A stretch of DNA of 45,652 nucleotides from Flavobacteriales bacterium (GCA_031378885.1 JANNEQ010000119.1:1-45652), one strand, 5' to 3'; counted from the first letter of the stretch, positions 10,468 through 44,179 are shown. The notes: generated from the sequence alone by a model not told the origin. Numbers and translations: made by a program.

Positions 10468-10505
10468 AGAATTATTTTTTGATGAGTCAATTTATTTGAA
10501 TAATG

Positions 10506-11390: not shown

Positions 11391-11465
11391 GATGGGTTAT
11401 TTATATTGCCAAATGTAGTTGCAATGTTTTCTTTGGTCTTGTCATATTTTATCATTCAATGGTAG

Positions 11466-12296: not shown

Positions 12297-12421
12297 GAAG
12301 AGAATAAGTCAAAGATAAACAATACTAAACATTAAATTTTATGGCCAGCGCTGACTGTATGTTCAACTCCATTTTCAACTCTGAATCGATGGTGCGGCTA
12401 ATACCTGCATTCGGAAAGCAA

Positions 12422-13072
12422 CTAATTTTCAATGAGGAGTTCTTCTTTTATAATTGCTCTTTGGTCTTGAGCTACCTCAATAAAGTACAGTCCGTTGGAT
12501 AAATTGCTCAGATCAAGTGTGAAGTTATCTCCCGAAATATTTTGAAGTATAAAAACTTGCTGCCCCATAGAATTGTAAATTGTGAGACTAGCGTTTTTTA
12601 AAGCTGTAATAGTTTGTATGGTAGTTTTGGAGGACGAGGGATTCGGAAAAATGGAATAATCCTTAATAATTGAATTCTCATTTATACCCAATCCTGATCC
12701 AAATGGAATGTTCTCACAAAAGCAGTAGTTGAAACTGACTCTGATGGTGTTTATTGGTGGAATCGCAAAAATAACAGGTGTTATCAAATAGGTACTCTCG
12801 CTGTTGTTGTTGGGTGACCAATGGCAATAACAATTTGAAGCCGCGATGGTGTCAAATGGTTCAATCGTTCTTACGACCATTAATTCGCAGTACACTTGTC
12901 CACCTAAGCCACTCGCACAGTCAGAACAACTGTTGCTGATGGTGACGGCCCAGGCTCCGGATGTGTCTATAGACAGTTCTTCAACTGTCAAATTGGTGCA
13001 ATCGGGGAGATTTTGCCCCAGGCTTGTTAATGAAAACGATAGTGCTATTACAATTATAATCGCTGATTTCAT
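12422..13072 (-). CDS. secreted hypothetical protein with a T9SS type-A C-terminal sorting domain
   Basis: C-terminal IFPNPSS...NGLYFIEVAQDQRAIIKEELLIEN tail. The signal peptide starts at the internal Met (MKSAIIIVIALSF) at 13070-13072, so the longer 13159 start is unlikely. Confidence 0.7.
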   Translation of the reverse strand: MKSAIIIVIALSFSLTSLGQNLPDCTNLTVEELSIDTSGAWAVTISNSCSDCASGLGGQVYCELMVVRTIEPFDTIAASNCYCHWSPNNNSESTYLITPVIFAIPPINTIRVSFNYCFCENIPFGSGLGINENSIIKDYSIFPNPSSSKTTIQTITALKNASLTIYNSMGQQVFILQNISGDNFTLDLSNLSNGLYFIEVAQDQRAIIKEELLIEN

Positions 13073-13343
13073 TTTGCTTGTGTCAGAGATTATAGTGCTG
13101 ACGCCGCACTTTTTATTATTGAAATGGTTCAAAATACAAATACAAATTCGAAAAACCAAATTTAGTTTAATTTGAAGTCAGGTTGCATGTCATTTTAGAC
13201 AAATGGCTTGTCCTTTTTTGTATGGCGTGGCAGGGGTGTTGAGAGAAAAAGTGACTATCTGGAATTGTTATTTGCCGCAGCTCGCCAAAATTCAGAATAC
13301 AGATAATAGTTATCCGACGCCGGATTCAGGTTGGTTGTGCGCC

Positions 13344-23486: not shown

Positions 23487-23575
23487 AGTCGTATGAGGAA
23501 TCGAACCTCAGTTAAAACAAGTTGTGTTCTGCCACTGAACTATCCTTTGCGGGAGTGGGAATCGAACCCACGCCA
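23487..23575 (-). other. two adjacent tRNA-like 3' fragments (T-arm plus acceptor-like sequence)
   Basis: Reverse complements read TGAGGTTCGATTCCTCA and GTGGGTTCGATTCCCAC, matching the canonical T-stem-loop GGTTCGATTCC. A D-arm-like GTTCAGTGGCAGAAC is also present. I could not fold a complete cloverleaf for either: no matching 5' acceptor, and the anticodon arm is truncated. Confidence 0.35.
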
Positions 23576-23997
23576 TCAACACTCATTACACAGATTTTAG
23601 TCAGGCAGAATATGAAAAATCAATGACCAGTCATACTATGCAGTAGTTTTGGATACTACATCCGGGGCCTGCTGTTTCTATGTGCTTCTTTTTCCTTGCG
23701 GAAGTATTTTTGTGATACTAAAGACGCACTCTTTGGCATCATTGTATTTTTGCTGTTCGGAAATGTGTGTTTCAAAGAACGTTTCTTGTTTTATTTCCTG
23801 GACAAATGTTTCAACCATACTGCGCAACGGAATTGCGCAGATAAAAATAAATTTTGAATTGCTTGAAATATTTATGTAAGTGGCTGGTAAATAGTAGTTG
23901 TTCTAATTGATATTTTTTCATGAATTTTCTTGCTGCGCACATCTATTGCGCAGTAAATTGGAATTTCTATATTTGTCATCCAAAAAAGAGATAGATT

Positions 23998-28757: not shown

Positions 28758-29244
28758 TTTGTTAGTGGGCAAAAGCGGCGCAAAAGTATTCAACCGCCTA
28801 AAAATCTTGCCTCATGAAAGGTTAACGAATCGTCAACCTTAAAAAGGCCCGCGAATATCGTCATTATCTCACTATGCCTGCGGGCTTGTGTAAAAAATAG
28901 GGAATTGTTTTTTTGTTTTAAAATCAGCTCTTAATTGATTGTAAATTAAACTGTTGTGCGTATTTGGGTTTTCCTGAAAATCATTTAGTTTAATTTGGGC
29001 CACATTCGAAAGGCTCAATGGAAGACTTTTCAGCGCCATTAATGGATGTGGTGAACTGAAAGTCAGAAGAAAACAGTGTCCGTCGGGTTGAATCCTACTG
29101 CTCGATATGGGTCGAATCAAACTGGCATTCACAACCTCTAAGTGGTTTGCATGAAGCAAGAAAATTACATCAGTTATTCCTTAACTTGTGCAGAATGGAT
29201 TAATTTCGCACTTGTCGCTTGTACCTTAATTAAATAAGTTATCT

Positions 29245-29670: not shown

Positions 29671-29772
29671 TCAGATCGAAAGTCTTTGTTTTTAATTAAA
29701 TGCGCGTCATATTATTTAGAAGCTACCGGCGCTTCCTTCAAATTATTTTTTAAATTGTGTCGTGAATTATTT

Positions 29773-30306
29773 TGGATCAACCGCAAAAGTTGGGGAGAGA
29801 TGGAGCAAGTTGAGTGGATTGACTAAGTCCGTAGGACTTATATGTTATTAGCCCCGGCCTGCCCCAACCGAACTGGTTGTGGGGTGGAACCCGGTGGTCC
29901 GATAATAAAAGATGACCCAACAACTCCAGCGAAGTTGAATGTTATGTTCTGATTCCTATTTTTAACCCTCTTGATTTTTTCAAATCGAATTACAATAATG
30001 TTCGACAATTTAAACCCAAATAGACGTTGGATTTTCATTCATTTTTCTCAGGAAAATTTCAATTAGGAAAAATTGAAACAGCAGAACTATAGAAGCCTGG
30101 CTTTTGTTTCGGTAATTCAACTGTCCATTTATCGGTTCAAAATTCAACTCCGTTGGAGTTGTGGGCCGCGCATTTGGGTCTGAGCCACCGGGTTGCACCC
30201 CACAACCAGTTCGGTTGGGGGCAGGCCGGGGTTAACAACCTTAAAGCCTACTTGGTCAATTTTGCAAATCAAAGTCTGTCACTCCCCAACTTTTGCGGTT
30301 GATCCG
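29773..30306. repeat. MITE-like foldback element with long imperfect inverted-repeat arms (~29773..29942 and ~30150..30306) around an AT-rich ~200-bp core
   Basis: The termini GGATCAACCGCAAAAGTTGGGGAG and CTCCCCAACTTTTGCGGTTGATCC are exact reverse complements. The internal GCCCCGGCCTGCCCCAACCGAACTGGTTGTGGGGTG is mirrored at 30200..30236. No ORF lies inside. Related copies are at 44180..44292 and 45091..45205. Confidence 0.75.
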
Positions 30307-30710
30307 TTATTTTGAATAGGTTGAATTTTCTTTAGCCCTATTCTGGCCGGAATTCAGTTTTGTTTTTCAATGAATTTCGATTGACAATGTCAGATCTTCA
30401 TATCCACGAGCTTTCAAATTGTATTTTTCAGGTGTTGTGATAATGTGTAAATAATTCGAATTGGTACCACAACCTGATTTTTTTTTTGAGTTGGATAGGA
30501 CTTTCACAATGTGATAAAGAAGTGTTCTGCCGCAACTCTATTTTATCTTCTGAAAAAACCTTAGGATGAAAATGTTTGTTGATTAAAAAACAGAATCTGG
30601 TGAAAGTAAAAAGTACCTGTGCTGAAATTATTTTTTTCCGGTGCCTTACTAAATTATTTGAAGATAACAGATATGCCTCTGTCTCGTATTGACGGAATTG
30701 AATTTGGGGT

Positions 30711-30888
30711 AAAATGAAATAGCCTATAAGTGTAGAATTGACACTTACAATAATGTGGTCATTCTTTACTGATGATGTTAGAATTTGGCGTATTATTTCG
30801 ATAGAATGAAATAACCTGAAAGTGTAATATTTACACTTACTCTGATTTGGTCATTCTTTACTGATGATGTTAGAATTTGGCGTAATAT
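30711..30888. repeat. tandem direct repeat, 2 x ~93 bp, containing palindromic cores (AAGTGTAGAATTGACACTT and GTGTAATATTTACAC)
   Basis: A 36-bp segment GGTCATTCTTTACTGATGATGTTAGAATTTGGCGTA is identical at 30757..30792 and 30849..30884. The flanking sequence is ~85% similar. It lies in the ORF-free leader upstream of the first giant gene. Confidence 0.7.
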
Positions 30889-31562
30889 AAGGTATAGCAC
30901 AATTCAGGTTATTTAATTACCAAATGGCTGGGGTTCATGAACGTGACAGCATTGACTTAATCGAATTGAGGATATTGATAGGAGTCCAGTGATGACAATA
31001 CCATAAATTGAATGCACAGCGAATCCTTTGTTGCCATTGGTTTACCTTGCTTATGTCTTGTGTGCATTATGTCAGTGACTATTGACGCTGTAATGAATTT
31101 ACGGGATAGATTTATGCGGTTTGACGTGGTGCGTTTTTAGGTTTAGATTGTATGAATTCGGAAAGGCCTGACTTAAATAGAAAAAGCGCATTTGTTCGGA
31201 GTTTTAAAGGGAGATCCAGATTAATATCTCACTTTTTTTCGAATCATTCGTGGTGAAATGCCTGAAAAGAATAATTTTTATTTTGTTTAATCTGAATTCT
31301 TTTTAGACGAATTGCGAAAAATTGTCGTCAAAGTGTATTCGTAAAATAGTTTTCAACATGCGTACATTTACGTGTTTTGTTTTGCAATATTTCGCCACTC
31401 ACAATTGAGAAAACTTCAAGAATAAATGTACGAACTGTCTCTAGTCATCGATTGTAATCATCTCACCAGATTGATCTGCTGTTGTTGCCGGATGTGAACT
31501 TTTTAGTCATATCGGCCTGACTTTGCGGCGCGCACGTTTGAAAGAATGTTCTTCTCTAAGGT

Positions 31563-31623
31563 GATTGCGCGGATGCCGAAAAGCGCTTAACAGAGTAGGT
31601 TACTAAATTTTTATCTAAACACT
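31563..31623 (+). promoter_or_regulatory. conserved 5' leader shared by both giant genes (CCGAAAAGCGC...AACAGAGTAGGT...TTTTTATCTAAACACT ATG)
   Basis: About 60 bp upstream of the ATG are near-identical to 39072..39132 upstream of the second giant gene. The similarity continues through the signal-peptide codons. Confidence 0.4.
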
Positions 31624-34600
31624 ATGTTTAAAAGATTACTGTTGACGGTTACTACCGTCATGATCGCGCTCATTAGTATTAGAGCAGCTCTTCTTCCAGA
31701 TTTAATCCCCTTACTCGACTCTGAAAAATCCGGCATTACCGTCGGGAGTGATGGTAGGATAGATGCATTTTGCGAATATCCCACCTCCCTTTCTGCTACA
31801 TTGCTGGATTGCCCAAGTCACACCTATCAGTTTGGTGTCGTCGGTGGTTCTGGTTCTATCTGTGCCTCTTATTGGGTAATAGATAATACCATTACATTGC
31901 CAGGTGGAATCCCCATGTCCTACGCATTTAGTACACCAGGTTATCACCTGATTTGTGCTAAAATTTATTGTTGTGAAGGTGGCGATGCCATATGGCTATG
32001 TACAGAAATTAACGTTCCGGAATTTTGTTCTTGTGTGCTTCCAACCGAGATTAAGGTGGAGGTTCTGAGTTGTCCTGAGCATTATTATCAGTTCACCGTA
32101 CCTCTTGAGAACGATTTGGTATGCATAGGAAAGTGGGTTGTAGATGGCGTTTCAATTACTGCCGGTGATAATCCTTTCCTTTATGTTCTTACACCTGGAA
32201 CACATACTATTTGTGTACAGGTATATTGCTGCGAGAATCCCAATCAAGCGAGCTTGATTTGTGTGGAGGTTGTAGTTCCTGAATCATGTGAGTGTATACA
32301 TCCCAATGAAATTCAAGTTCAGTTGCTGGACTGTCCCTCACATCAATACCTGTTTGTGCCTTTGGGATTACAATACATTTGCGAATATGATTGGTACGTG
32401 GATGGAGTGTTGGTATCCAACGCAAGTAATTTGATTATTAATCTTACACCAGGCTCTCATGAAATTTGTCTGAAGACTTTTTGCTGTGAGACCGGTGCAG
32501 GTGATGGCATTTGTATTACTATTATTGTTCCTGAAAATTGTGGTTGCGTTCTGCCTGATGTGATAAAGGTAGAAGAACTCAATTGTGCAGAGCATCTCTA
32601 TCAGTTTTTACTACCCAACGTGGGTGATGGAGTTTGTATTGGAAAGTGGATTGTTGATGGAATATCAATTACAGATAACGTCAATCCATTTATTTACAAT
32701 CTCACTCCAGGTGTACATGAAATTTGTGTTCAGTTGTATTGTTGTGAAAATCCTGAGCAAACATTTATTGTTCTATGTACCATTGTGGATGTACCCGAGT
32801 TTTGTCCTTGTGTGCTTCCGGTAGCTATTATGACCACTGAACTTGATTGTCCATCTCACAAGTATGATTTTTCACTTGTGGGCCTTTCCGGTGATGTGTG
32901 CGTGGCATTTTGGCTTGTAGATGGTGTGGTAGATGGTTCTACCGGATACAACCTTACACTTAATCTGACACCGGGTGTGCACGAAATATGCGCCAAAGTA
33001 TATTGCTGCGATTTTAGCGGAGGTACTTATCTGTGCACAACCGTTATTGTTCCCGAAAATTGCTACAGTTGTGTATTCCCTACAGGAATATTGGCCACAG
33101 AAATCAATTGTCCTGAACATTTGTATCAGTTCGATATTATCGGATTGTATGATGCAGTGTGTATCAAAGAATGGGTTATTGATGGAGTAGGTAATGGAAT
33201 TGACCCAACCTCACTTACCATCTCTCTCACTCCGGGTATCCACACAATTTGTGTAAATGTCTATTGTTGTGATGGTTCAAGTGACTTAGTTCAGATTTGC
33301 ACTACTGTTTTTGTTCCCGATAATTGCGATTGTATATTCCCTGAGGGAATAAAGGTAACAGAGCTGAATTGCCCTGAACACCTTTACCAGTTTTCAATTG
33401 TTGGACCGTACTCAGGTATGTGTATCAAAGATTGGTTTGTAGACGGTAGCAATATAAACCAACCATTCGATCCAACTACCTACGTTCTAACTCCAGGATC
33501 GCATGATATATGTCTATACATATACTGCTGTGAAACTGGCGTTGGACAATGGTATTGCGTTACAATTGAGGTTCCGGAGTATTGCGGTTGCGTTTTCCCG
33601 ACTGATATTAATGTGACGGAAATTAGTTGTCCTGAACATTTATATGAGTTCTCACTGGTTGGACCATACTCTGGTATGTGTATCAAAGACTGGTGGGTAG
33701 ATGGCAACAATATCGGTCAACCTTTTGATCCTACAACTTACGTGCTTACACCAGGACCACATACAATATGTGTTTACGTGTATTGCTGTGAGACTGGACA
33801 GGGTATCTGGTTGTGCAAAGACATTGTAGTTCCTGTCTGCGATTGCATTTTACCGGATGGTATCATGGTTACACCACTTACAGGTTGCCCTGATAACAAA
33901 TACCAATTCGGTCTGTGGGGTGGAAGCGGATATTGTATCGCTGATTGGTACGAACCAGGAGTTGCTTCTTATGGCAATTCTTATCCATTGTATCTCACTC
34001 TTTCACCTGGTACACATAAAATTTGTGTTAAGGTATATTGCTGCGAAGATCCTAGTATCAGCACAGAGCTTTGCACAGAGGTGTTCGTACCTTATTGCGA
34101 ATGCATTTTACCGGATGCCATCATGGTTACACCACTTACAGGTTGCCCTGAGAACAAATATCAATTCGGTCTGTGGGGTGGAAGTGGATATTGTATCGCC
34201 GATTGGTACGAACCAGGAGTTGCTTCTTATGGCAATTCTTATCCATTGTATCTCACTCTTTCACCAGGTACACATAAAATTTGTGTTAAGGTGTATTGCT
34301 GTGAAGATCCAAATATCAGCGCAGAGCTTTGCACAGAGGTGTTCGTGCCTTATTGCGAATGCGTTTTACCGGATGCCATCATGGTTACACCACTTACAGG
34401 TTGCCCTGATAACAAATATCAATTCGGTCTGTGGGGTGGAAGTGGATATTGTATCGCTGATTGGTACGAACCAGGAGTTGCTTCTTATGGCAATTCTTAT
34501 CCATTGAATATAGCTCTTTCACCAGGTGTACACAAAATTTGTGTTAAGGTGTATTGCTGTGAAGATCCAAATATCAGCATCGAACTTTGCACAGAAGTAA

Positions 34601-37600
34601 TCGTACCTAATTGCGATTGCGTTTTACCGGATGGTATTGTGGTTATGCCACTTACAGGTTGCCCTGATAACAAATACGAATTCGGTCTGTGGGGTGGAAG
34701 CGGATATTGTATCGCCGGTTGGTACGAACCAGGAGTTGCTTCTTATGGCAATTCTTATCCATTGTATCTCACTCTTTCACCAGGCGTGCATAAAATTTGT
34801 GTTAAGGTGTATTGCTGTGAAAATCCAAGTATCAGCACAGAACTTTGCATAGAGGTGAACGTACCTTATTGCGATTGTGTTTTGCCGGATGCTATTATGG
34901 TTACACCACTTACAGGTTGCCCTGATAACAAATATCAATTCGGTCTGTGGGGTGGAAGCGGATATTGTATCAGCGACTGGTACGAAGGAAGTATTTCTTA
35001 TGGAAATTCGTATCCCCTGATTCTTGCTCTTACTCCTGGCACTCACATCATTTGTGTGAAGTTGTATTGCTGCAACAATCCGAATGTTAGTACTACATTA
35101 TGCACTACTGTTGTTGTTCCAGACTGCCCACCTTGCACATTCCCTGATGGGATCATGGTTACTGCTTTAACAGGTTGCCCTGATAACAAATATGAATTTG
35201 GCCTATGGGGCGGAAGTGGATATTGTATCAGCGATTGGTATGAAGGAAGTATTTCTTACGGAAATTCGTATCCATTACAGATCGCTCTTACACCTGGTAC
35301 GCATATTATTTGTGTGAAGTTGTATTGCTGCGAGAATTCTAACTACAGTATTAATTTATGTGTTACTGTAATTGTGCCTTCTTGCGATTGCGTTCTGCCA
35401 GATGGTATTCTGCATGAAGTGCTTGACTGCCCTAACCACAAATACCAATTCACTCTTTGCGGTGGAAGTGGATATTGTGTACAGCAATGGTGCGACAATG
35501 GTGTGCCAATGGGTAATGATTACCCCTGGAATACTACGTTAACTCCAGGTCTTCACATGATCTGCGTTACAGTTTATTGCTGCGAAAACCCATCTATCCA
35601 GACTGTACTTTGTAAGGAAGTATTTGTTCCTGAATATTGCTGCGTTCTTCCAACTGAAATTGGAGTGAAACGTCTTGCCTGCTCAAATAAATATGAATTC
35701 ACAGCATATTGTGTAGTGGATGATAATGTTTGCTTTGGCAAGTGGTTTGTAGATGGCGACGCAATTGATTCTGGTATTAATCCTTTCACAGTGGAGCTTA
35801 CACCTGGAACACATGAAATCTGTGTTAATGTGTATTGCTGCGACACTGGTCTCGGTACCCAGATTTGTGTGACTGTAGTTGTTCCTGAAGTTTATAATTG
35901 CGTATTGCCTGATGGTATCATGGTAAACGTCTTGGATTGTCCAACACACAAATACGAGTTTACTTTATGGGGCGGAATTGATTATATAGTGAAGCAATGG
36001 TACGTCCAGGGTACTCCCATGGGCGAAGCTTATCCATTTATCACAAATCTTGCTCCCGGTACTTACACAATTTGTGTAGTGGTTTACTGCTGTGAAACCG
36101 GCGAAGCTAAAGAGATGTGCATTGATGTCACTGTTCCTGAATTCTGCTGCGAATTGCCAACAGACATCGGGGTTAAAATACTCGATTGTCCTGGTCACAA
36201 GTATCAGTTCACTGTGCTTTGTCCCGCAGATAATATCTGTTTTGGAAAATGGTCTGTTGATGGTGTGGCAATTGATTCTGGCGTCAATCCATTCATTACA
36301 GGTCTTACTCCTGGTAACCATACTATTTGCGTAACTGTGTACTGCTGCGATTATCCGGACCAATCCAAACTATTGTGTGTGGATGTATACGTTCCGGAAA
36401 ATTGTGATTGCCAATTCCCAAGTGGCATTATGGTCACTGAGTTGGATTGTGCTACTCATACTTACGAATTCGCATTCTGGGATTATAGTAACATTTGCGT
36501 ACTTCAGTGGTACGACAATGGACTACCAATGGGTAATGATTATCCATGGGTAACTACCTTGACTCCTGGCGACCATGAGATTTGTGTGACCTTCTATTGC
36601 TGCGATAATCCTTGCGAAATAGGTTCGTTGTGCACTTCAGTTCACGTTCCTGATTTCTGCTGCAATTTGCCTACTGGCATTGAATACAACTTGCTCGACT
36701 GTGTCGAAGGTTTGTACGAATTCAATTTGGTAGGTGGCAGCGGTGACTTCTGCGTGTCGTACTGGCAGGTGGATGATTATCTGATTGCTTCAACAAGCCC
36801 ATTCCTTATTACATCTCTATTCCCCGGACCACATCATATATGTGCCAAGGTATATTGCTGCAACGGAACAGGTGATGCACAGCTAATCTGTATTGATATC
36901 GTTGTAGAGGGTTGCCCATGTATACTTCCAACCGAAGTTGTTGCAACGCAGCTCGATTGCGCTACCGGTTTATATCAATTCGACCTTATCGGTGGAAATG
37001 ATTACTGGTGTGTGGCTGAGTGGGTTGTTGATGGCAGCGGAATCGGAAGCACAGACAATCCTTTGCTGTACAACCTTACACCTGGAACACATGAAATATG
37101 TGTGAAAGTGTATTGCTGCTATGGTGGCGGTGGATCTGACTACTTGTGCGTGACTGTTGAAGTACCCAATTGTGATTGCGTTTATCCGACGACCATTGAA
37201 TTGATCGCGAAAAATTGCACAGAGCATTTGTACACCTTCGGCTTTGTTGGAGGATCAGATTTCTGCGTGGCATATTGGAATGTAGATAATACAGGGGAAG
37301 TAGAAAGTGGAAATTATACCCCAACATTCTACCTCACTCCAGGCTGGCATACAATCTGTGCTAAAGTATATTGCTGCAATGGCAATGCTGAAGCCGCATT
37401 AATCTGCATTGACTTCTATGTGCCTGAATTCTGCGATTGCGAATTACCAACTGATATTAAGACAACAGTTATTTCCTGCCCTGATCATAAATACCAATTT
37501 GATCTTGTAGGCGGAGATGGAAATCTTTGTATCAAAGACTGGTATGTGGATGGTGCCAATCAAGGGGCTCCATATTCACCTTTTGTGACAACGCTTACAC

Positions 37601-38511
37601 CTGGTATACATGAAGTATGTGTTTACGTATACTGCTGCGATACAGGTGTTGGAGTTTATCTCTGCACTACAGTTGTTGTTCCGGAGAATTGCGACTGCAC
37701 TTATCCGACTGGTATTGCCTTGTTGGGATCCAATTGTCCTGAAGGCTTATATACTTTCGGATTGAATGGTGGCTCAAACTTCTGCATAGCTTATTGGAAA
37801 ATTGATGGTGGAGCAGAAGTGGAAGGTGGAAATTATTCTCCAACTTTCTATCTGGCACCAGGTCCTCATACAATTTGCGTAAAAGTGTATTGCTGCGAGG
37901 GTGGACCTGAGGCAGAGATTATCTGTATTGACTTCGTTGTTCCAGAGAATTGCGAATGCATTCTTCCAACCAAGATTAGTGTGGCCGCACTTACCTGCAA
38001 CACATACCAGTTCGGATTTAACTTCGGAGCGAACTACTGCGTAGCTTATTGGACAATTGACGGTGGAGCTGAAGTGGAAGGTGGAAATTACAATCCTATC
38101 TTCACTCTTTCAGGAGGTCATCATACGATTTGCGCGAAAGTATATTGCTGCGACGGTCTATCTGATGCGGTGCTCATTTGCGTAGAACTTGATGTTCCAT
38201 GCGATATAGCTCCTGGTGGAATGGCAATGGCTCCTGGTAACTCAGGAATAGAAAATCAGCTTAACGAAAAAGTCGAAGCAAAACTATTCCCTGTTCCTAC
38301 AGAGTCTATATTGAACATTTCTTATGATCAATTGGTGAACCTCAAAGAACTTACTGTAATGAACATGATGGGTGAAATCATCGTGCGCAAATCAAATCTG
38401 GGTGACATTAGTACCACCCAATTGGATGTGCAATCATTATCAAGTGGAGTTTATACAGTTACACTCAATGCCAACGGGCATTTGCAACACATCAGTTTCA
38501 TTAAGAAATAA
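31624..38511 (+). CDS. giant secreted Cys-rich repeat protein (2295 aa) with a T9SS type-A C-terminal sorting domain
   Basis: Signal peptide, then ~25 tandem ~85-aa repeats with the consensus C-x-C-x-LP-x-I-(x5)-LDCP-x-H-x-Y-x-F-(x3)-GG-x-G-x-C-(x3)-W-x-VDG-(x~20)-LTPG-x-H-x-ICV-x-VYCC-(x8)-LC-(x2)-V-x-VP, i.e. about 8 Cys per unit. The C-terminal LFPVPTESILNISYDQ...GVYTVTLNANGHLQHISFIKK is a T9SS tail. Confidence 0.9.
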   Translation: MFKRLLLTVTTVMIALISIRAALLPDLIPLLDSEKSGITVGSDGRIDAFCEYPTSLSATLLDCPSHTYQFGVVGGSGSICASYWVIDNTITLPGGIPMSYAFSTPGYHLICAKIYCCEGGDAIWLCTEINVPEFCSCVLPTEIKVEVLSCPEHYYQFTVPLENDLVCIGKWVVDGVSITAGDNPFLYVLTPGTHTICVQVYCCENPNQASLICVEVVVPESCECIHPNEIQVQLLDCPSHQYLFVPLGLQYICEYDWYVDGVLVSNASNLIINLTPGSHEICLKTFCCETGAGDGICITIIVPENCGCVLPDVIKVEELNCAEHLYQFLLPNVGDGVCIGKWIVDGISITDNVNPFIYNLTPGVHEICVQLYCCENPEQTFIVLCTIVDVPEFCPCVLPVAIMTTELDCPSHKYDFSLVGLSGDVCVAFWLVDGVVDGSTGYNLTLNLTPGVHEICAKVYCCDFSGGTYLCTTVIVPENCYSCVFPTGILATEINCPEHLYQFDIIGLYDAVCIKEWVIDGVGNGIDPTSLTISLTPGIHTICVNVYCCDGSSDLVQICTTVFVPDNCDCIFPEGIKVTELNCPEHLYQFSIVGPYSGMCIKDWFVDGSNINQPFDPTTYVLTPGSHDICLYIYCCETGVGQWYCVTIEVPEYCGCVFPTDINVTEISCPEHLYEFSLVGPYSGMCIKDWWVDGNNIGQPFDPTTYVLTPGPHTICVYVYCCETGQGIWLCKDIVVPVCDCILPDGIMVTPLTGCPDNKYQFGLWGGSGYCIADWYEPGVASYGNSYPLYLTLSPGTHKICVKVYCCEDPSISTELCTEVFVPYCECILPDAIMVTPLTGCPENKYQFGLWGGSGYCIADWYEPGVASYGNSYPLYLTLSPGTHKICVKVYCCEDPNISAELCTEVFVPYCECVLPDAIMVTPLTGCPDNKYQFGLWGGSGYCIADWYEPGVASYGNSYPLNIALSPGVHKICVKVYCCEDPNISIELCTEVIVPNCDCVLPDGIVVMPLTGCPDNKYEFGLWGGSGYCIAGWYEPGVASYGNSYPLYLTLSPGVHKICVKVYCCENPSISTELCIEVNVPYCDCVLPDAIMVTPLTGCPDNKYQFGLWGGSGYCISDWYEGSISYGNSYPLILALTPGTHIICVKLYCCNNPNVSTTLCTTVVVPDCPPCTFPDGIMVTALTGCPDNKYEFGLWGGSGYCISDWYEGSISYGNSYPLQIALTPGTHIICVKLYCCENSNYSINLCVTVIVPSCDCVLPDGILHEVLDCPNHKYQFTLCGGSGYCVQQWCDNGVPMGNDYPWNTTLTPGLHMICVTVYCCENPSIQTVLCKEVFVPEYCCVLPTEIGVKRLACSNKYEFTAYCVVDDNVCFGKWFVDGDAIDSGINPFTVELTPGTHEICVNVYCCDTGLGTQICVTVVVPEVYNCVLPDGIMVNVLDCPTHKYEFTLWGGIDYIVKQWYVQGTPMGEAYPFITNLAPGTYTICVVVYCCETGEAKEMCIDVTVPEFCCELPTDIGVKILDCPGHKYQFTVLCPADNICFGKWSVDGVAIDSGVNPFITGLTPGNHTICVTVYCCDYPDQSKLLCVDVYVPENCDCQFPSGIMVTELDCATHTYEFAFWDYSNICVLQWYDNGLPMGNDYPWVTTLTPGDHEICVTFYCCDNPCEIGSLCTSVHVPDFCCNLPTGIEYNLLDCVEGLYEFNLVGGSGDFCVSYWQVDDYLIASTSPFLITSLFPGPHHICAKVYCCNGTGDAQLICIDIVVEGCPCILPTEVVATQLDCATGLYQFDLIGGNDYWCVAEWVVDGSGIGSTDNPLLYNLTPGTHEICVKVYCCYGGGGSDYLCVTVEVPNCDCVYPTTIELIAKNCTEHLYTFGFVGGSDFCVAYWNVDNTGEVESGNYTPTFYLTPGWHTICAKVYCCNGNAEAALICIDFYVPEFCDCELPTDIKTTVISCPDHKYQFDLVGGDGNLCIKDWYVDGANQGAPYSPFVTTLTPGIHEVCVYVYCCDTGVGVYLCTTVVVPENCDCTYPTGIALLGSNCPEGLYTFGLNGGSNFCIAYWKIDGGAEVEGGNYSPTFYLAPGPHTICVKVYCCEGGPEAEIICIDFVVPENCECILPTKISVAALTCNTYQFGFNFGANYCVAYWTIDGGAEVEGGNYNPIFTLSGGHHTICAKVYCCDGLSDAVLICVELDVPCDIAPGGMAMAPGNSGIENQLNEKVEAKLFPVPTESILNISYDQLVNLKELTVMNMMGEIIVRKSNLGDISTTQLDVQSLSSGVYTVTLNANGHLQHISFIKK
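33838..35385 (+). repeat. intragenic tandem array of six 258-bp (86-aa) units at ~90-97% identity
   Basis: Units start at 33838, 34096, 34354, 34612, 34870 and 35128, each encoding C[DE]C[IV]LPD[GA]IMVTPLTGCPDNKYQFGLWGGSGYCI[AS]DWYE...ICVK[VL]YCC. Off-frame ORFs on both strands show the same periodicity. Confidence 0.85.
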
Positions 38512-38606
38512 TATTTCCAAATGAATTGATTCGTGTGATCAATGTAATTCTAACACAAGAAACAACAGCCTTTAAGTCCTGTTGATTCAAGTGAAATTTA
38601 ATAAAA

Positions 38607-38641
38607 TGGCTGCCAGTTTTCTGGCGGCCATTTTTGTTTTT
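38607..38641 (+). terminator. rho-independent terminator after the first giant gene
   Basis: TGGCTGCCAG-TTTT-CTGGCGGCCA hairpin followed by TTTTTGTTTTT. Confidence 0.7.
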
Positions 38642-39132
38642 CTAATCGGTCGCGTTGAACTGTTTTTTTGGATTTAAAGTGGAACTTTAAGCATGTATTT
38701 TATCAGGAATTTCCCCTACGATGAAATCGTATTTTGGCTCGGCAGGCCATTAAATACTTTCGATAATGGCGACCGATGCCCAATAAGTCGAAATTCCATA
38801 AATGGAATGAACGCTCATTTTTTGTAGATGAACTGACTATATTTATCGCTTAAATTGCCAATTCGGATATTTATTAACATTTGTAAGAATCGAACTATTT
38901 TAACGAGATTTACTGCACTCACTGACAAGGAAATTTTTCAAATGCACGGAACCTCTATTTTAATCTTTTCTACCAATCAAAATTATCTTGGTTTTTGTTG
39001 CTGTAAGTAACAATGGATCCGATTGGAATGGATTGTGGTTTTTGAGCTCATTGAATTCTTCTTTGAAAAGAGCGCGCGTCAACCGAAAAGCGCATGAACA
39101 GAGTAGGTAAACAATTTTTTTATCTAAACACT

Positions 39133-42100
39133 ATGTTAAAAAGACTATGTATGACGGTCTGTGCCGTCACCATCGCACTCATTTGCATTAGGGCTTCAAT
39201 TCTCCCCGACATTATTCCCTTATTAAGCTCTGACAATTCTTTTTTAATGCACGAAAATGAGAATTTCCCTTCTGATGAAGGCTCCTCAGGAGATGCAACA
39301 ATCGGTTTGGAGAATTTAAGTGATTGTATTTTGCCAACTAATCTGGAAGTTACTCTTCTTGATTGTAACTCGCATAGCTATTATTTTACTGTTGACAATT
39401 CGAATGGTATTCTTTGTGTTGGAAAGTGGTATGTTGATGGAGTTCCAATTACTTCAGGATTAGAATTCACAGTCAATCTCACTCCAGGTACACACGAAGT
39501 TTGCCTGATCGATGTTATTTGCTGTGCAACCGGCGAAAGTGCCAATGTTTGCGAAACAGTTTTTGTTCCCGAAAATTGTGAATGTATATATCCTGAGGCT
39601 ATTGCGGTTTCAGTAATTGACTGCCTGGGACATAAGTACCATTTCGATTTGATCGGTGGACAAAACTATTGCACAACCCTTTGGTATGACGGAGGCATTC
39701 TGATTGGAAGCGGAACACCACTGGATGTAGTGTTGACTCCAGGCGTTCACTCTATTTGTGTGAAGGTTTATTGCTGCGTAACCAATATTGGTGATGGTTT
39801 GTGCATTGATGTAGTTGTTCCTGAATCATGCTGTGAATTACCTACCCAAATCGAAGCCGTTGTGCTTGACTGTGAATCGCATAAATATGAATTTACAGTT
39901 CCCAACCCAGATGGCGCTTTTTGTTTTGGAAAGTGGTATGTAGATGGCAATGGAGTTACGTCTGGCGTAAATACTTACTCAACTAATCTCACACCCGGTG
40001 TTCACGAAATCTGCGTAAATGTGGAGTGTTGCGAAACGGGCGAAGGTATTGCACTTTGCATCACCGTTGTTGTACCAGAGAACTGTGATTGTGTGGTTCC
40101 AACTGCAATTCTAACTACTATTTTAGATTGTGAATCGCATAAGTACAATTTCTCTTTCGCGGATGGATCTGGTGATCTTTGTGTGGTTTTCTGGTTGGTA
40201 GATAATGATGTTCAAGCTTCTACTGATAATAATATATCCGTTACACTTACACCAGGAACGCATACAATTTGTCTGAAAGTAGTTTGTTGCAATGGATCAG
40301 GTTCCAATTACATCTGCACAGATGTTTTTGTTCCTGAAAATTGTGAATGTCAATATCCAGAGGCCGTTATAGCAACGCAAGTTGACTGTGATAGTCACAA
40401 GTATCAATTCACTTTTGCAGGTGGCAACGGTTTTTGCGTTTCATACTGGAGAATTGATAACGGTCCGGAAATAGAGCAGGGAAGCTATAATCCTATCCTG
40501 GCGCTCACTCCAGGTTGGCACACAATCTGCGCTAAAGTAGAATGCTGCAATGGTGGCCCTGAGGCTGAACTCCGTTGTGTTGATTTATTCGTTCCTGAAA
40601 TATGTGAATGTATTAATCCTACGGATATTGTGACAACTATAATAGACTGCCCCAGCCATAAATATCAATTTGATTTAAGCGGAGGTCAGAATTACTGCGA
40701 TACCCGTTGGTATCTCGACGGATTCCTGGTGCAGATTTCCGCAAATTTCGTAACTACTCTAACACCGGGTACTCACACCATTTGCTCTAAATGGTCATGT
40801 TGTGATGATCCATCTATGGGTGGTTCATTATGCATTGATGTGGTTGTACCTGAAACATGTGGCTGCCAGATTCCAACATCAATTGATTATGTCCTCAATG
40901 ATTGCCAGACAAATGAATACACCTTTACATTGCAAGGTGGTGCTGGCGCTTTCTATGTAATGTTTTGGACAATCGACGGTACACCTCTTGTTGTAAATGA
41001 CCCTGCAATTACAATCACTCTCAGCGCCGGACCTCATACTATCTGCGCAAAATCATTTTGCTTTGAGGAAAATGATGGGGGATGGGTTTGTGTAGATCTT
41101 GTAGTACCCGAACCTTGTGGTTGTATCTGGCCGGGCCAAATCGAAACAGTACTTCTAGACTGCGAAGGACACAAATATGAGTTTACTATACCCAATGCTG
41201 ATGGCTCACTTTGCATTGGCAAATGGTTTATTGATAGCGTTGGAGTTAATACAGGGGCAAATCCTTTCTCTACTATTCTCACTCCGGGCAGTCATACTAT
41301 TTGTGTAGAAGTGAAGTGCTGCGAAACAGGTGAGGCAATTTCAATTTGTACTACCGTTGTTGTACCAGAGAACTGTGATTGCGTGGTACCAACTGCAATT
41401 CTAACTACTATTTTAGATTGTGAATCGCATAAGTATAACTTCTCTTTCGCAGATGGATCAGGCGATCTATGTGTGGTTTTCTGGTTGGTAGATAATGATG
41501 TTCAAGCTTCTACTGATAATAATATATCTATTACACTTACACCTGGAACACATACAATTTGTCTGAAAGTATTTTGTTGCAATGGATCAGGTTCCAATTA
41601 CATCTGCACGACGATTATTGTTCCCGAAAATTGCATCTGCAGCTATCCTACGACGGTTGAAGTTCAGAACTCCAATTGTGTCGATCACTTATACACTTTT
41701 GGATTGATAGGTGGTTCAAATTATTGCATTGATCATTGGAATATTGATGGTGGTGCTGACATTGAGGCTGGAAATTATAATCCAACTTTCAATCTGACTC
41801 CCGGAGTTCATGAAATATGCGTTAAGGTACATTGTTGCGAAGGTGGTATGGAATCGGAATATGTTTGTCTTACTAACTTTGTTGTACCAGAGAACTGTGA
41901 TTGCGTGGTACCAACTGCAATTCTAACTACTATTTTAGTTTGTGAATCACATAAGTATAATTTCTCTTTCGCAGATGGATCAGGCGATCTATGTGTGGCT
42001 TTCTGGTTGGTAGATAATGATGTTCAAGCTTCTACTGATAATAATATATCTATTACACTTACACCGGGAACGCATACAATTTGTCTGAAAGTATATTGTT

Positions 42101-43233
42101 GTAACGGATCTGGTTCGAACTATATCTGCACAGATGTTTTTGTTCCTGAAAATTGTGAATGTCAATATCCGAATGCCGTTATAGCAACGCAAGTTGACTG
42201 TGATAGTCACAAGTATCAGTTCACTTTTGCTGGCGGCAATAATTTCTGCGTTTCATACTGGCGCATTGACAATGGACCAGAAATTGAGCAAGGAAGTTAT
42301 AATCCTGTACTGGCACTAACTGCAGGTTGGCACACAATCTGCGCTAAAGTAGAATGCTGCAATGGTGGCCTTGATGCTGAACTCCGTTGTGTTGATTTAT
42401 TCGTTCCTGAGATATGTGAATGTATTAATCCTACTGCTATTGTGACAACCATAATAGACTGCCCCAGCCATAAATATCAATTTGATTTAAGCGGTGGTCA
42501 GAATTACTGCGATACCCGTTGGTATCTCGACGGAGCATTAGTGCAGATTTCCGCGAATTTCGTAACTACTCTAACACCGGGTGCTCATACTATTTGCTCT
42601 AAGTGGTCATGTTGTGATAATCCATCTATGGGTGGTTCATTATGCATTGATGTGCTTGTCCCAGAGAATTGCCCATGTCTATTGCCTACGCAGATTACTG
42701 TAATAGAGTTAGATTGTCCTAATCATAAATATCGCTTTGAAATAGTTGCAACTGGCTCACCATATTGTATCAAGCAATGGTATATTGATGGACAGCAAAC
42801 GTTTGTGGATAATTCATGGATTGAAATGGTACTTACGCCAGGATCACATGAAATCTGTGTTTTCGTTTATTGTTGTGATGAGGTACTAGGTGGCATTTAT
42901 ACTTGTGTGAATGTAATTGTTCCCGAGAGTTGCTTTAGTGGAATGGCAATGGCTCCTGGTAACTCAGGAATAGAAAATCAGCTTAACGAAAAAGTCGAAG
43001 CAAAACTATTCCCTGTTCCTACAGAGTCTATATTGAACATTTCTTATGATCAACTGGTGAACCTCAAAGAACTTACTGTAATGAACATGATGGGTGAAAT
43101 CATCGTGCGCAAATCAAATCTGGGTGACATTAGTACCACCCAATTGGATGTGCAATCATTATCAAGTGGAGTTTATACGGTTACACTCAATGCCAACGGG
43201 CATTTGCAACACATCAGTTTCATTAAGAAATAA
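39133..43233 (+). CDS. giant secreted Cys-rich repeat protein, paralog of 31624..38511 (1366 aa), with a T9SS type-A C-terminal sorting domain
   Basis: Same repeat family, and its leader, signal peptide (MLKRLCMTVCAVTIALICIRA) and last ~100 aa are near-identical to the first gene. The start at 39133 is chosen by homology to the paralog's start; the six-frame ORF begins at 39094. Confidence 0.88.
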   Translation: MLKRLCMTVCAVTIALICIRASILPDIIPLLSSDNSFLMHENENFPSDEGSSGDATIGLENLSDCILPTNLEVTLLDCNSHSYYFTVDNSNGILCVGKWYVDGVPITSGLEFTVNLTPGTHEVCLIDVICCATGESANVCETVFVPENCECIYPEAIAVSVIDCLGHKYHFDLIGGQNYCTTLWYDGGILIGSGTPLDVVLTPGVHSICVKVYCCVTNIGDGLCIDVVVPESCCELPTQIEAVVLDCESHKYEFTVPNPDGAFCFGKWYVDGNGVTSGVNTYSTNLTPGVHEICVNVECCETGEGIALCITVVVPENCDCVVPTAILTTILDCESHKYNFSFADGSGDLCVVFWLVDNDVQASTDNNISVTLTPGTHTICLKVVCCNGSGSNYICTDVFVPENCECQYPEAVIATQVDCDSHKYQFTFAGGNGFCVSYWRIDNGPEIEQGSYNPILALTPGWHTICAKVECCNGGPEAELRCVDLFVPEICECINPTDIVTTIIDCPSHKYQFDLSGGQNYCDTRWYLDGFLVQISANFVTTLTPGTHTICSKWSCCDDPSMGGSLCIDVVVPETCGCQIPTSIDYVLNDCQTNEYTFTLQGGAGAFYVMFWTIDGTPLVVNDPAITITLSAGPHTICAKSFCFEENDGGWVCVDLVVPEPCGCIWPGQIETVLLDCEGHKYEFTIPNADGSLCIGKWFIDSVGVNTGANPFSTILTPGSHTICVEVKCCETGEAISICTTVVVPENCDCVVPTAILTTILDCESHKYNFSFADGSGDLCVVFWLVDNDVQASTDNNISITLTPGTHTICLKVFCCNGSGSNYICTTIIVPENCICSYPTTVEVQNSNCVDHLYTFGLIGGSNYCIDHWNIDGGADIEAGNYNPTFNLTPGVHEICVKVHCCEGGMESEYVCLTNFVVPENCDCVVPTAILTTILVCESHKYNFSFADGSGDLCVAFWLVDNDVQASTDNNISITLTPGTHTICLKVYCCNGSGSNYICTDVFVPENCECQYPNAVIATQVDCDSHKYQFTFAGGNNFCVSYWRIDNGPEIEQGSYNPVLALTAGWHTICAKVECCNGGLDAELRCVDLFVPEICECINPTAIVTTIIDCPSHKYQFDLSGGQNYCDTRWYLDGALVQISANFVTTLTPGAHTICSKWSCCDNPSMGGSLCIDVLVPENCPCLLPTQITVIELDCPNHKYRFEIVATGSPYCIKQWYIDGQQTFVDNSWIEMVLTPGSHEICVFVYCCDEVLGGIYTCVNVIVPESCFSGMAMAPGNSGIENQLNEKVEAKLFPVPTESILNISYDQLVNLKELTVMNMMGEIIVRKSNLGDISTTQLDVQSLSSGVYTVTLNANGHLQHISFIKK
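40078..42660 (+). repeat. nested intragenic duplications: a ~775-bp three-repeat block at 40078..40850 and 41887..42660, with an extra copy of the first unit at ~41375..41630
   Basis: The protein segment ENCDCVVPTAILTTILDCESHKYNFSFADGSGDLCV...SLCIDVVVPE recurs nearly verbatim. Nucleotide identity is roughly 95-98% by eye. Confidence 0.8.
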
Positions 43234-43284
43234 TATTTCCAAATGAAATGATTGTCGTGAAAGTATAAAAATTTTATTTTAAGA

Positions 43285-43310
43285 GCCGCCGGAATTCCGG
43301 CGGCTTTTTT
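43285..43310 (+). terminator. rho-independent terminator after the second giant gene
   Basis: GCCGCCGGAATTCCGGCGGC perfect hairpin followed by TTTTTT. Confidence 0.8.
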
Positions 43311-44179
43311 ATGTCATGAATAATTGAACAGTTGGCAGTGTAACCCATTGGTATTTGAAACTTCTTCAAATCCAAAATTACCGATCTCTTTCGAAGTTAA
43401 TCAAGATTTGAAGGGACTGGTTTCACTGTTGATCTGGCTCGTGAATTAGGTTTTCTTAATGTTACATTTTAAAATAATCTAAATGCGATTGGATATAATA
43501 ACACACTAATTCGATTATCACCGGATCTCTCAAAACATAAATTATGACATCGTTGTGTAAATCTTAATTCGAATCGATGAACGAATTTGAAGATTATCTA
43601 GGGAGTTTGCGCATTTTATGGCCTGGGAACGGTGTCCCACTGACCATTGTGGGAGTGGGTAAAAGCTAACAACCCCCAAGTTCTGTCATTCCGAGTTCGA
43701 CTGGTAAAACCAAACCATCCCCACCATTCTGTGGGAACTCATTAGCGTTGACATTATCATTAGTTGAATTCGTATCAAATTATATGGGCCGAGCTTGCTC
43801 TTTGTTCTCATTCGCAATTTCATTTCAACGGGTTAAAACCCTTTCAACGGGTTAAAACCCGTTGCTACAATATGGACCGAGCCAACGGCTCTTTTATCCG
43901 CTTCGGACTTTAACTATGGGTATCCCTCATAGTGCCAGAGGCACGGCCTATATTGTAGCACAGGACTTTAGTCCTGTGTAAAAAGTGCGATAATAATCAG
44001 AGTGCCGTAGGCACGGAACATTTATTTGGGTCGATTGAAAATTGGATTTTTTCGTTGTAAGATACAATTTATCCTCAAATGAAAAGCCTGGGATATCAAG
44101 GCTTTCACCAACTTGTCAATGGCTTACGCATGGTAGCGGAGTGAGGAATCTCACAAAGTCAAAAGAGAGTAGAAAGAGC

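Follow-up and report, generated by a model that had tools for sequence, protein, structure and literature searches.

Two adjacent T9SS-cargo genes of a Flavobacteriales-like bacterium encode tandem arrays of a strongly diverged eight-cysteine PKD-type domain

Two adjacent genes with separate leaders and terminators

The window, a stretch of 45,652 nucleotides from an uncultured Flavobacteriales-like bacterium, contains two adjacent genes for T9SS cargo on the plus strand, which also carries the leaders, terminators and protein domains described below. Gene 1 (31624-38511) and gene 2 (39133-43233), defined by ORF call and translation, encode proteins of 2295 aa (250 kDa, pI 4.1) and 1366 aa (148 kDa, pI 4.2). 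Each consists of a signal peptide recognised by eye (Sec-type, aa 1 to ~22, in gene 1), contiguous eight-Cys PKD-like units and a type-A T9SS CTD. The 25-unit array of gene 1 spans 31771-38202, bounded in structural phase by C2 of unit 1 and the trailing Cys past unit 25, and the 14-unit array of gene 2 spans 39325-42933. Both were delimited by HMM segmentation and phase analysis, and AF2 models give pLDDT 92-93 for the gene 1 array. The CTDs occupy 38284-38508 (aa 2221-2295) and 43006-43230. The array extends from the signal peptide to the CTD, with no head or hook domain distal to it in either protein. Both frames are unbroken, over 6.9 and 4.1 kb, and all units are intact and in frame.

Both genes are preceded by a DUF805b-type leader, a hairpin with an AAyAGAGUAGG tail. 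Leader 1 (31566-31601) matches Rfam RF02914 with 39.5 bits (gathering threshold 35.6), its end lying 22 nt upstream of the ATG of gene 1. Leader 2 (39073-39109) was assigned from its alignment with leader 1 and an RF02914 score of 33.4 bits, just under the threshold (E 1.8e-7 in a local scan); it ends 23 nt before the ATG at 39133. Such a leader lies upstream of all five family genes, scoring 40.3, 35.7 and 38.1 bits at the loci L001, L002 and L084; in L002, the stem shows a compensatory change. The longest ORF2 frame opens at an in-frame ATG at 39094. We favour 39133 as the gene 2 start, because the conserved leader overlaps ATG 39094 and 39133 lines up with the start of gene 1. This choice yields the 1366 aa given in the earlier note, which had listed two ORFs of 2295 and 1366 aa.

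A separate terminator had also been ascribed to each gene, in agreement with our findings. The intrinsic terminator of gene 1 (38603-38634), a 14-bp stem followed by a T-run, was detected by a terminator scan, while that of gene 2 (43284-43310), AGCCGCCGG-AATT-CCGGCGGCT followed by T6, was found by eye and missed by the scanner. The description of the surrounding DNA as ORF-poor is true of the upstream 1.95 kb (29671-31623). ORF and comparison analysis delimits an ORF-poor, non-conserved spacer at 29671-31303, which holds a ~530-bp MITE-like inverted-repeat element (29774-30305) and an 87-nt direct repeat (30710-30888).

The repeat unit and its kinship with PKD domains

Segmentation with a self-iterated HMM divides the arrays into exactly 25 and 14 contiguous units of 82-88 aa, each with an E-value of 1e-27 to 1e-36. 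This 39-unit repeat signal is far above chance level and makes exact the ~25 and ~14 copies of paralogous, tandem ~85-aa eight-Cys modules that had been noted before. The previously proposed consensus is recovered in the 39-unit alignment, with the eight Cys sites being CxC, DC, G..C, IC, YCC and LC. According to phase analysis, a structural domain opens with the second Cys of a CxC and closes with the first Cys of the CxC that follows; the first units are without a leading Cys, and one additional Cys stands after the last units. Each unit contains two well-conserved His (CP.H and PG.H) and an invariant Trp, which in ~70% of cases has D-G two residues further on (W-x-[VI]-D-G). The motifs F-G-D and H-x-Y have largely gone from the units, and G-x-H-x-I-C-V is found in place of G-x-Y-x-V-x-L.

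AlphaFold predicts a single unit as a seven-strand Ig-like sandwich (pLDDT 92.4), and in this confident β-sandwich model the core is of the normal hydrophobic kind. The unit has the form of a PKD domain, a β-sandwich of ~80-90 aa superposable on solved PKD structures. The best single-domain Foldseek match is SGBP-B of Bacteroides (PDB 7kwc, 7kwb, 6e57; E 3.5e-3, TMq 0.64), which also ranks first among PDB sequence matches, below significance. SGBP-B is a Bacteroidota surface protein with tandem PKD/Ig-like spacers, but it is a PUL lipoprotein with few domains and a C-terminal glycan-binding domain, and is neither Cys-rich nor T9SS cargo.

At threshold, the unit goes undetected by every Pfam and NCBIfam model. 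The Pfam PKD models (PF00801 / PF18911) do not match either protein at E<=1, nor the 39 units or the family consensus at E<=10; in the same Pfam scan, the consensus of eight-Cys PKD repeats scores 57.9 bits on PKD_4. The HYR, SprB and Ig_7 models have no match to either protein at E<=1, and the cadherin-like model, with 0 significant stretches, stays at 15.5 bits where 24.2 would be required. The earlier note could not place the unit in the PKD, cadherin-like, HYR or SprB-repeat families. The Pfam searches bear this out for the last three; for PKD, and for the possibility of a new fold, profile comparison does not.

The connection to PKD runs through an eight-Cys class from Flavobacteriales MAGs that Pfam and NCBI already call PKD. 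With hhalign, the unit profile (A3) matches this class (A4) with 98.1% and E 7e-14 over 85 columns, full length and with the Cys in register, a score to be read in the knowledge that Cys-rich profiles can raise profile-profile scores artificially. The class in turn matches ordinary PKD (A2) with 99.1% and E 1.4e-18, and the A4 and A2 profiles both match the PKD domains of ColH, ColG, 1L0Q and PKD1 in the PDB. In exhaustive HMMER searches, members of the close family score ~80-100 bits per unit, and the figure drops to 20-36 bits in Cys-rich proteins that Pfam calls PKD_4/PKD. A3 and A4 agree beyond the Cys themselves, in an LP that follows C2, an invariant W, the motifs G-x-[YH]-x-[IV]C and V-x-V, and the CxC at the junction.

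Eight-Cys PKD repeats of Flavobacteriales (MDG1261006.1, MCB0761834.1) have in common with the two-gene family a seven-strand sandwich of ~85-90 aa in tandem arrays and the eight Cys sites, including the CxC junction. Also common to both are LP after the first Cys, vC.V.CC closing strand F, a Cys in strand G and the invariant Trp in strand C. The two-gene family differs in the loss, at least for the most part, of WDFGDG and H-x-Y, in having W-x-[VI]-D-G and, before strand F, G-x-H rather than G-x-Y, and in escaping every Pfam PKD model. In addition, several of the eight-Cys PKD intermediates carry a dockerin-like D-x-N-x-D-G tail, whereas the proteins of genes 1 and 2 carry a T9SS CTD.

An alternative origin is suggested by BiPBP_C (PF06832), an Ig-like domain found at the C-terminus of PBP1C-type penicillin-binding proteins and the sole Pfam family with a direct signal. 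It shares the pattern L.pG.H.l.V in the E-F strands, and BiPBP_C and PKD are both members of the E-set clan. The gene 2 protein sums to 67.7 bits over 14 weak repeats and the consensus scores 17 bits, while the direct hhalign comparison with ordinary PKD (A1 against A2) gives only 69.9% (E 4e-5). The unit could then be an independent Ig/Fn3-like invention or descend from another E-set family, its likeness to eight-Cys PKD being convergent and Cys-driven. We consider this distinctly unlikely. Only 6 of the 39 single units match BiPBP_C (best E 0.0046), none at the 26.8-bit cut-off, and the matches cover just ~30-47 of 90 model positions, half of them at most (positions 47-80 in the best stretch of gene 2). 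The same faint signal recurs in many genuine, Pfam-called PKD proteins. The match to eight-Cys PKD, in contrast, is full length and includes non-Cys features, and a graded series leads from ordinary PKD through 2-Cys and eight-Cys PKD to the two-gene family.

The unit is therefore a strongly diverged eight-Cys PKD Ig-like domain, homologous through intermediates, and not a new fold family. The two-gene family is a variant of this well-known domain. The repeat had been regarded as unrecognised, subject to revision by a match to a described repeat; the Ig-like sandwich and the chain of confident profile matches from A3 through A4 and A2 to the PDB now assign it to such a family, without a direct Pfam match.

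Alleles and evolution of the arrays

Beyond the window, only six proteins or fragments of the family were found among 1.84 billion cluster representatives searched. Three syntenic alleles contain 12, 31 and 25+14 units, two of these loci holding a single gene. The locus thus varies in copy number, and the earlier description of it as rapidly evolving is apt in this respect and for a 2-4 fold higher dN. The units have a dN/dS of 0.06-0.2, indicating purifying selection, and a signal of positive selection is absent.

Similar units recur within the arrays. Neighbours among gene 1 units 9-12 show 88-92% nucleotide identity, and gene 2 units 4-6 are copied again as units 9 and 11-13. A 316-nt tract at the 3' end of gene 2 (42938-43253), covering the CTD and 20 nt beyond the stop, matches 38216-38531 of gene 1 at 99% identity and represents a recent gene conversion or duplication. 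Array length probably shifts through unequal recombination between similar units, and genes 1 and 2 probably swap sequence at their 3' ends.

Short-read assemblers may err on such near-identical sequence, and with one gene at each of two syntenic loci, the repeat counts or the two-gene layout could be a metagenome assembly artefact of mis-joined or mis-counted repeats. We regard this as barely credible. The units of gene 2 are only 42-63% identical to those of gene 1, which rules gene 2 out as a mis-assembled copy of gene 1. The two genes also have separate leaders, signal peptides and terminators, their long ORFs are unbroken with all units intact, and the 31-unit allele, collinear at both ends, comes from an independent assembly.

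Cysteines, secretion and the proposed surface rods

Cys account for 8.8% of the gene 1 protein and 8.3% of the gene 2 protein. Exactly eight are present in 58 of 80 phased units and nine in 14 of the 80; with the correct phase, the units at either end of each array also contain exactly eight. C4 and C7 are both missing from gene 2 unit 7, as are C5 and C8 from unit 12 of the relative P0002, and this loss in pairs supports disulfides. Across 470 related units, C5 and C8 alone is the commonest state (282 units), and C4, C6 and C7 tend to occur together (phi 0.7-0.9). Ordinary 2-Cys PKD relatives commonly carry the C5-C8 pair. In the three-domain model, strands F and G comprise residues 58-68 and 75-84, with C63 opposite C79/V80. 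Each unit probably contains four disulfides. The best-supported pairs would be C5-C8, between strands F and G, and C4-C7, leaving two to be formed from C2, C3, C6 and C1'. At 203, the number of Cys in the gene 1 protein is odd, which together with the 9-Cys units indicates that some Cys are free, inter-domain or inter-molecular.

The odd total and the 9-Cys units misfit a purely paired scheme, while CxC, CC, a Cys content of 8-9% and two conserved His per unit recall metallothionein-like ligand sets. Cys and His might accordingly bind metal, in extracellular or periplasmic Cu/Zn/Cd sponges or in redox proteins. This is highly unlikely given the confident β-sandwich with its normal hydrophobic core and Cys that come and go pairwise, with C5-C8 so common in 2-Cys PKD relatives. 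CxxCH motifs are absent, CxxC occurs only twice in the two proteins together, passage from Sec through the periplasm to the T9SS favours oxidised Cys, and the comparable arrays of GhpA carry disulfides.

Both C-termini exceed the curated cut-offs for type-A Por sorting tails, the assignment made in the earlier note. For PF18962 (Por_Secre_tail, cut-off 27), gene 1 scores 37.8 and gene 2 39.1 bits, and for TIGR04183 (cut-off 23) 30.3 and 31.5 bits. The N-termini, judged by eye, consist of MFKR/MLKR, a ~15-residue hydrophobic stretch and I-R-A, and are conserved in the relatives P0002 and P0152. Four further CTD genes lie within the window, three of them type-A and one CHU_C (type-B); together with FabD, which assigns the contig to Flavobacteriales-like Bacteroidota, they hint indirectly at a putative T9SS machinery (SprA/Sov, PorKLMN, PorU/V) in the host genome. 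In a Pfam scan like that of genes 1 and 2, a neighbouring gene (26004-28793) does match Ig_7, PKD_4 and CHU_C.

Large filament proteins such as SprB have a type B CTD and a dedicated PorP-like partner. The proteins of genes 1 and 2 resemble the SprB type and GhpA as giant Sec/T9SS substrates that consist of little besides tandem Ig-like repeats; unlike the SprB type, they have no SprB or Ig_7 Pfam matches. GhpA, the Aureispira grappling hook, is a T9SS substrate of 5898 aa; intramolecular disulfides stiffen its 52 Ig-like repeats, and it forms a heptamer, includes a hook module and has PorP/PorE-like anchor genes downstream (bioRxiv 10.1101/2024.01.29.577165). A straight, stiff, disulfide-bearing stem would be a likeness to GhpA in particular, and the top array-level Foldseek matches are GhpA fragments (PDB 9flu, 9flw, 9flp).

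Since GhpA stems are heptameric, the proteins might act as lateral or disulfide-linked multimers that form an appendage or a cross-linked, S-layer-like or GhpA-like coat, and not as monomeric fibres. The odd Cys count of gene 1 and runs of 7-, 9- and 10-Cys units hint at inter-chain bonds, and the co-located paralogues might co-assemble. We consider this unlikely, as the TM-score to GhpA is only ~0.26, placing the likeness at the level of the domain. Furthermore, no PorP/PorE-like anchor genes adjoin either gene, the CTDs are type A, and a distal hook or head is absent. The Cys content is also much higher and more regular than in GhpA, with eight per domain.

On balance, we favour the view that both genes encode Sec-exported, T9SS-secreted, head-to-tail arrays of the diverged eight-Cys PKD-type domain that act as disulfide-stapled, acidic surface rods. 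The signal peptide would direct the chain into the periplasm, where each ~85-aa domain would fold and probably be locked by its four disulfides. The type-A CTD would mediate export via the T9SS and be expected to come off, followed by release or surface attachment. With CxC leaving one residue between domains, there is essentially no linker, and the array is expected to be a stiff rod of ~100 nm for 25 units and ~55 nm for 14. This stiffness is a prediction from the CxC spacing; the three-unit AlphaFold model has a pLDDT of 93.0, but its pTM of only 0.59 is too low to demonstrate rigidity. Presumably located at the cell surface, the proteins would most likely serve as fibre, adhesin or spacer.

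It is conceivable, if again unlikely, that four-disulfide Ig-like domains butted directly together, with the extra Cys bonding domains or chains, form a rigid covalent nanorod or a cross-linked lattice. If so, the unit would be an undescribed structural module, and the proteins would represent a novel kind of surface appendage in Bacteroidota, beyond another adhesin.

Gene structure and phase of the repeat

Gene 1 (31624-38511, + strand) encodes a protein of 2295 aa (250 kDa). Gene 2 on the same strand ends at 43233 and has two candidate starts, at 39094 (1379 aa) and at 39133 (1366 aa; 148 kDa). Since the leader element described below overlaps the ATG at 39094, and the segment from the element through the second ATG aligns with gene 1, the alignment places the true start at 39133, matching the 1366 aa of the earlier note. 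Both proteins are acidic (pI 4.1-4.2) and rich in Cys (8.8% in gene 1, 8.3% in gene 2). Their C-termini carry a type-A T9SS sorting domain (CTD) that scores above the Pfam and NCBIfam cut-offs. The scanner detects a strong terminator for gene 1 (38603-38634, +) and misses that of gene 2, a GC-rich palindrome with a T-run that is plain by eye in the sequence (43284-43310, +). The description of two ORFs with type-A tails and their own terminators is thus borne out.

An HMM seeded with the example unit of the earlier note and iterated on the two window proteins divides them into exactly 25 and 14 contiguous units, where approximate counts of 25 and 14 had been proposed. The units are 82-88 aa long, with per-unit E values of 1e-27 to 1e-36. 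The alignment of all 39 (profile A1) contains eight conserved Cys positions plus invariant P, Y, F, W and G residues, reproducing the proposed consensus. Throughout the family, arrays open with a unit that has no leading Cys and close with one additional Cys after the last unit; phased on the second CxC cysteine, these terminal units too hold exactly eight Cys. The structural domain does not start at the CxC: its boundaries are the second Cys of one CxC and the first Cys of the following one, so that a single residue separates consecutive domains.

Relation to PKD domains and the cysteine framework

The unit is not recognised by any Pfam or NCBIfam model. The only library signal is a summed, sub-domain match to BiPBP_C, which reaches 67.7 bits over gene 2, 17 bits for the consensus and a best E of 0.0046 in single units (6 of 39 matched). 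Searching PDB sequences with the profile of the window units gave nothing significant (best SGBP-B, E 0.83). While a word-indexed search with A1 missed even the window's own proteins, the family was found by a single-protein query and an exhaustive HMMER search of 1.84 billion cluster representatives, which gave 930 matches. A top group of five representatives, at 80-100 bits per unit, comprises P0001 (gene 2 itself), P0002, P0003, P0004 and P0007. The next tier, at 20-36 bits per unit, consists of Cys-rich multi-repeat proteins (P0005, P0008, P0011-13, P0016, P0019 and P0022), several of which are named 'PKD domain-containing protein [Flavobacteriales bacterium]' at NCBI. Their units align to the window profile at the CxC junction, LP, the Cys after strand A, the Cys before Trp, vC.V.CC and the strand-G Cys. 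These 8-Cys PKD units have their architecture in common with the window units, but the WDFGDG...H.Y...sGtYtVcL signature is still present. A Pfam scan of P0005, P0008, P0012, P0013 and P0016 with one control set yields PKD_4/PKD, with E down to 1e-112.

Profile-profile comparison connects the window family (A3) to the 8-Cys PKD units (A4; 98.1%, E 7e-14, 85 columns), and A4 to ordinary Cys-poor PKD domains (A2; 99.1%, E 1.4e-18). Both A4 and A2 match the solved ColH, ColG, 1L0Q and human PKD1 domains. A non-PKD ancestry is one rival explanation, and the direct comparison of A1 with A2 reaches 70% only (E 4e-5). Because of the sequence bridge and the profile-profile matches via A4, we conclude that the unit belongs to the PKD lineage and has diverged strongly within it: the fold and the cysteine framework of the 8-Cys PKD subclass are kept, and the Pfam-defining signature is lost. 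The earlier note had called the family unrecognised and proposed Pfam and PDB searches as a check. For the domain libraries this stands, with no direct Pfam match and no significant PDB match; for fold and ancestry it does not, as PKD is reached through intermediates. The window repeat is a new, highly diverged PKD variant in an otherwise typical giant T9SS cargo.

In place of a T9SS CTD, several proteins with 8-Cys PKD repeats from Flavobacteriales MAGs (among P0008, P0011, P0012, P0013 and P0019) carry a terminal dockerin/EF-hand-like tail (…C.sDvNqDG.v...DLL..L..fG..C). This tail suggests another mode of anchoring or assembly for the same Cys-rich module.

Among 80 correctly phased family units, 58 contain eight Cys, six contain ten, one contains six and 15 contain an odd number. 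Paired loss occurs in natural variants: unit 7 of gene 2 lacks C4 and C7, and unit 12 of P0002 lacks C5 and C8 (cysteines numbered C1-C8; C1' is the first Cys of the next CxC). We used co-loss and co-occurrence in 470 related units of 104 proteins outside the close family. C5 and C8 alone are the commonest state (282/470), followed by the full block, and C4, C6 and C7 co-occur tightly (phi 0.7-0.9). These statistics resolve C5-C8 and the C4/C6/C7 block. In a three-domain model, strand F comprises residues 58-68 and strand G residues 75-84, with C63 facing C79/V80. The co-occurrence and the model support an F-G disulfide, C5-C8, that is widespread; the 8-Cys class would have built three further bonds on it. 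Among the other predicted pairs C4-C7 has the best support, and for the remaining cysteines we infer C2-C6 and C3-C1' from the topology. Gene 1 has an odd Cys total (203) and there are 9-Cys units; some cysteines are therefore free, inter-domain or inter-chain. Inter-chain cysteines would fit a rival reading, a multimeric or cross-linked appendage; a metal-binding role is another rival for the cysteines, beside the disulfides favoured by the paired losses.

The leader element and its surroundings

A DUF805b-type RNA motif (RF02914) ends ~22-28 nt upstream of the ATG in all five family genes examined. Copies precede the family genes at 31566-31601 and 39073-39109 in the window and in the related loci L001 (9941-9977), L002 (9936-9972) and L084 (7942-7977). 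The motif is a hairpin with a CCGAAAA loop and an AAyAGAGUAGG tail, and its stem contains a compensatory change (GCGC/GCGC vs GGGG/CCCC). Specificity for the giant-gene family was considered and rejected, as a metagenome scan, in which 52/75 downstream ORFs start 20-29 nt after the motif core, places it before very diverse genes, including DUF805-like membrane proteins, GG-leader small peptides, lipoproteins and other secreted proteins. Given this diversity, the motif does not seem tied to DUF805 genes or to the giant-gene family, and resembles a general leader or initiation element of Bacteroidota that keeps a constant spacing from the start codon. Literature searches on DUF805b and on Cys-rich PKD T9SS proteins found nothing useful.

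The window is rich in T9SS cargo. The - strand encodes three small type-A CTD proteins of 215, 294 and 245 aa (9820-13159), with an AraC-family regulator between the second and third, as well as a 929-aa LTD/PKD/Ig_7 cargo protein with a type-B CHU_C tail (26004-28793). No Dsb-type or T9SS machinery genes are found near the giant genes within the window, and a six-frame HMM search detected no decayed repeat units in the ORF-poor flanks. The giant proteins contain almost no copies of the general O-glycosylation sequon of Bacteroidota, D-[ST]-[AILMTV] (1 vs 10.5 +/- 3.1 expected from composition shuffles, a significance that is overstated as the repeats are not independent); neighbouring smaller proteins contain 1-3 each.

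Conservation in the syntenic loci does not extend to the upstream spacer (29671-31303). An inverted-repeat element of ~530 bp (29774-30305) has 27-nt ends (29774-29800 and 30279-30305, 96% complementary) and nested 67-nt arms (76%), and appears to be MITE-like or a long hairpin. The spacer also contains an 87-nt direct repeat (30710-30796 and 30802-30888; 86% identical, 92-nt spacing), each copy of which holds an identical promoter-like match, TGGTCA-17-TAGAAT. A weak Y-RNA-like YrlA match (RF02553; - strand, window 23499-23598 and L084 7-108; 30.7 and 37.4 bits vs a gathering score of 69) lies in these two related genomes between the RtcB/Band-7 operon and a divergently transcribed WYL-domain regulator. 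A diverged Y-RNA or a tRNA-like element, belonging to an RNA-repair locus, is one possible reading. Downstream of gene 2, in DNA poor in ORFs, an Acido-Lenti-1 sRNA match (43931-43978, -) scores just above the gathering score (38.7 vs 37 bits); this occurrence would lie outside the phyla usual for the motif.

Alleles, evolution and predicted function

The close family is rare, with four proteins in a 5.8-billion-cluster index plus a small number of further fragments or alleles from metagenomes; 185,579 species-representative genomes gave no relative with gene 2 as query. The window FabD is 72-74% identical to those of uncultured Flavobacteriales/Bacteroidota MAGs. Three assemblies have a common order of RtcB, WYL regulator, esterase, LTD/PKD/CHU_C protein, long spacer, giant gene and 223/224-aa ORFs. 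Copy number is polymorphic at this locus: 12 units in L001, 31 in L084, and 25 in the window, which has the second, 14-unit gene. An assembly artefact would be a rival explanation of the repeat counts; the two ends of gene 1 align collinearly with those of the 31-unit allele, at 80-99% identity per unit. In mid-array, both have expanded a private block of 'LTGCP'-type units, with similarities of 88-94% inside one array and 62-68% across the two, a case of concerted evolution. Identity between gene 2 units and gene 1 units is only 42-63%, and between the two leaders 77%; even so, the final 316 nt, made up of the CTD and a further 20 nt, are 99% identical, which indicates recent gene conversion at the 3' end. 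P0002, the 12-unit L001 allele, contains an internal tandem duplication of a block of about five units, units 2-6 resembling 8-12 (10405-11571 vs 11947-13170).

The earlier proposal of a rapidly evolving locus agrees with the copy-number differences and with a dN against the L001 orthologue 2-4 times higher than in the flanks. The units are under purifying selection, their dN/dS (0.06-0.2 in paralogous and orthologous comparisons) being similar to that of flanking genes. The locus is dynamic and fast-diverging, yet clearly functional.

Following Sec export, the proteins would fold in the periplasm and oxidise four disulfides per domain. The T9SS would then recognise the CTD, which would be removed, with release or surface attachment of the protein. 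At the ~4 nm length of an Ig-like domain and with effectively no linker, the products would be stiff acidic rods of ~100 nm (gene 1) and 55 nm (gene 2). We moderately favour a disulfide-stapled T9SS surface fibre, acting as an adhesin or spacer. The closest functional precedent is GhpA of Aureispira, a T9SS substrate in which 52 Ig-like repeats form a straight stem, partly stabilised by intramolecular disulfides (bioRxiv 10.1101/2024.01.29.577165). GhpA fragments are the top array-level structural matches, with a TM of only ~0.26, and unlike GhpA the window proteins have neither a head domain nor adjacent PorP/PorE-like anchor genes.

No new fold, secretion route or mechanism is revealed. Array expansion, concerted evolution and gene conversion are cleanly illustrated by the three alleles at one locus, and a naturally disulfide-stapled (as predicted), linker-less Ig-like module is of possible interest for protein engineering. 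Adhesion, gliding and predation in Bacteroidota are shaped by giant T9SS repeat proteins, SprB and GhpA among them, the majority of which lack annotation because domain libraries miss their repeats. One such 'orphan' repeat is now shown to be a PKD derivative, and the 8-Cys PKD class defined here would justify a dedicated profile, by which such proteins would be annotated.
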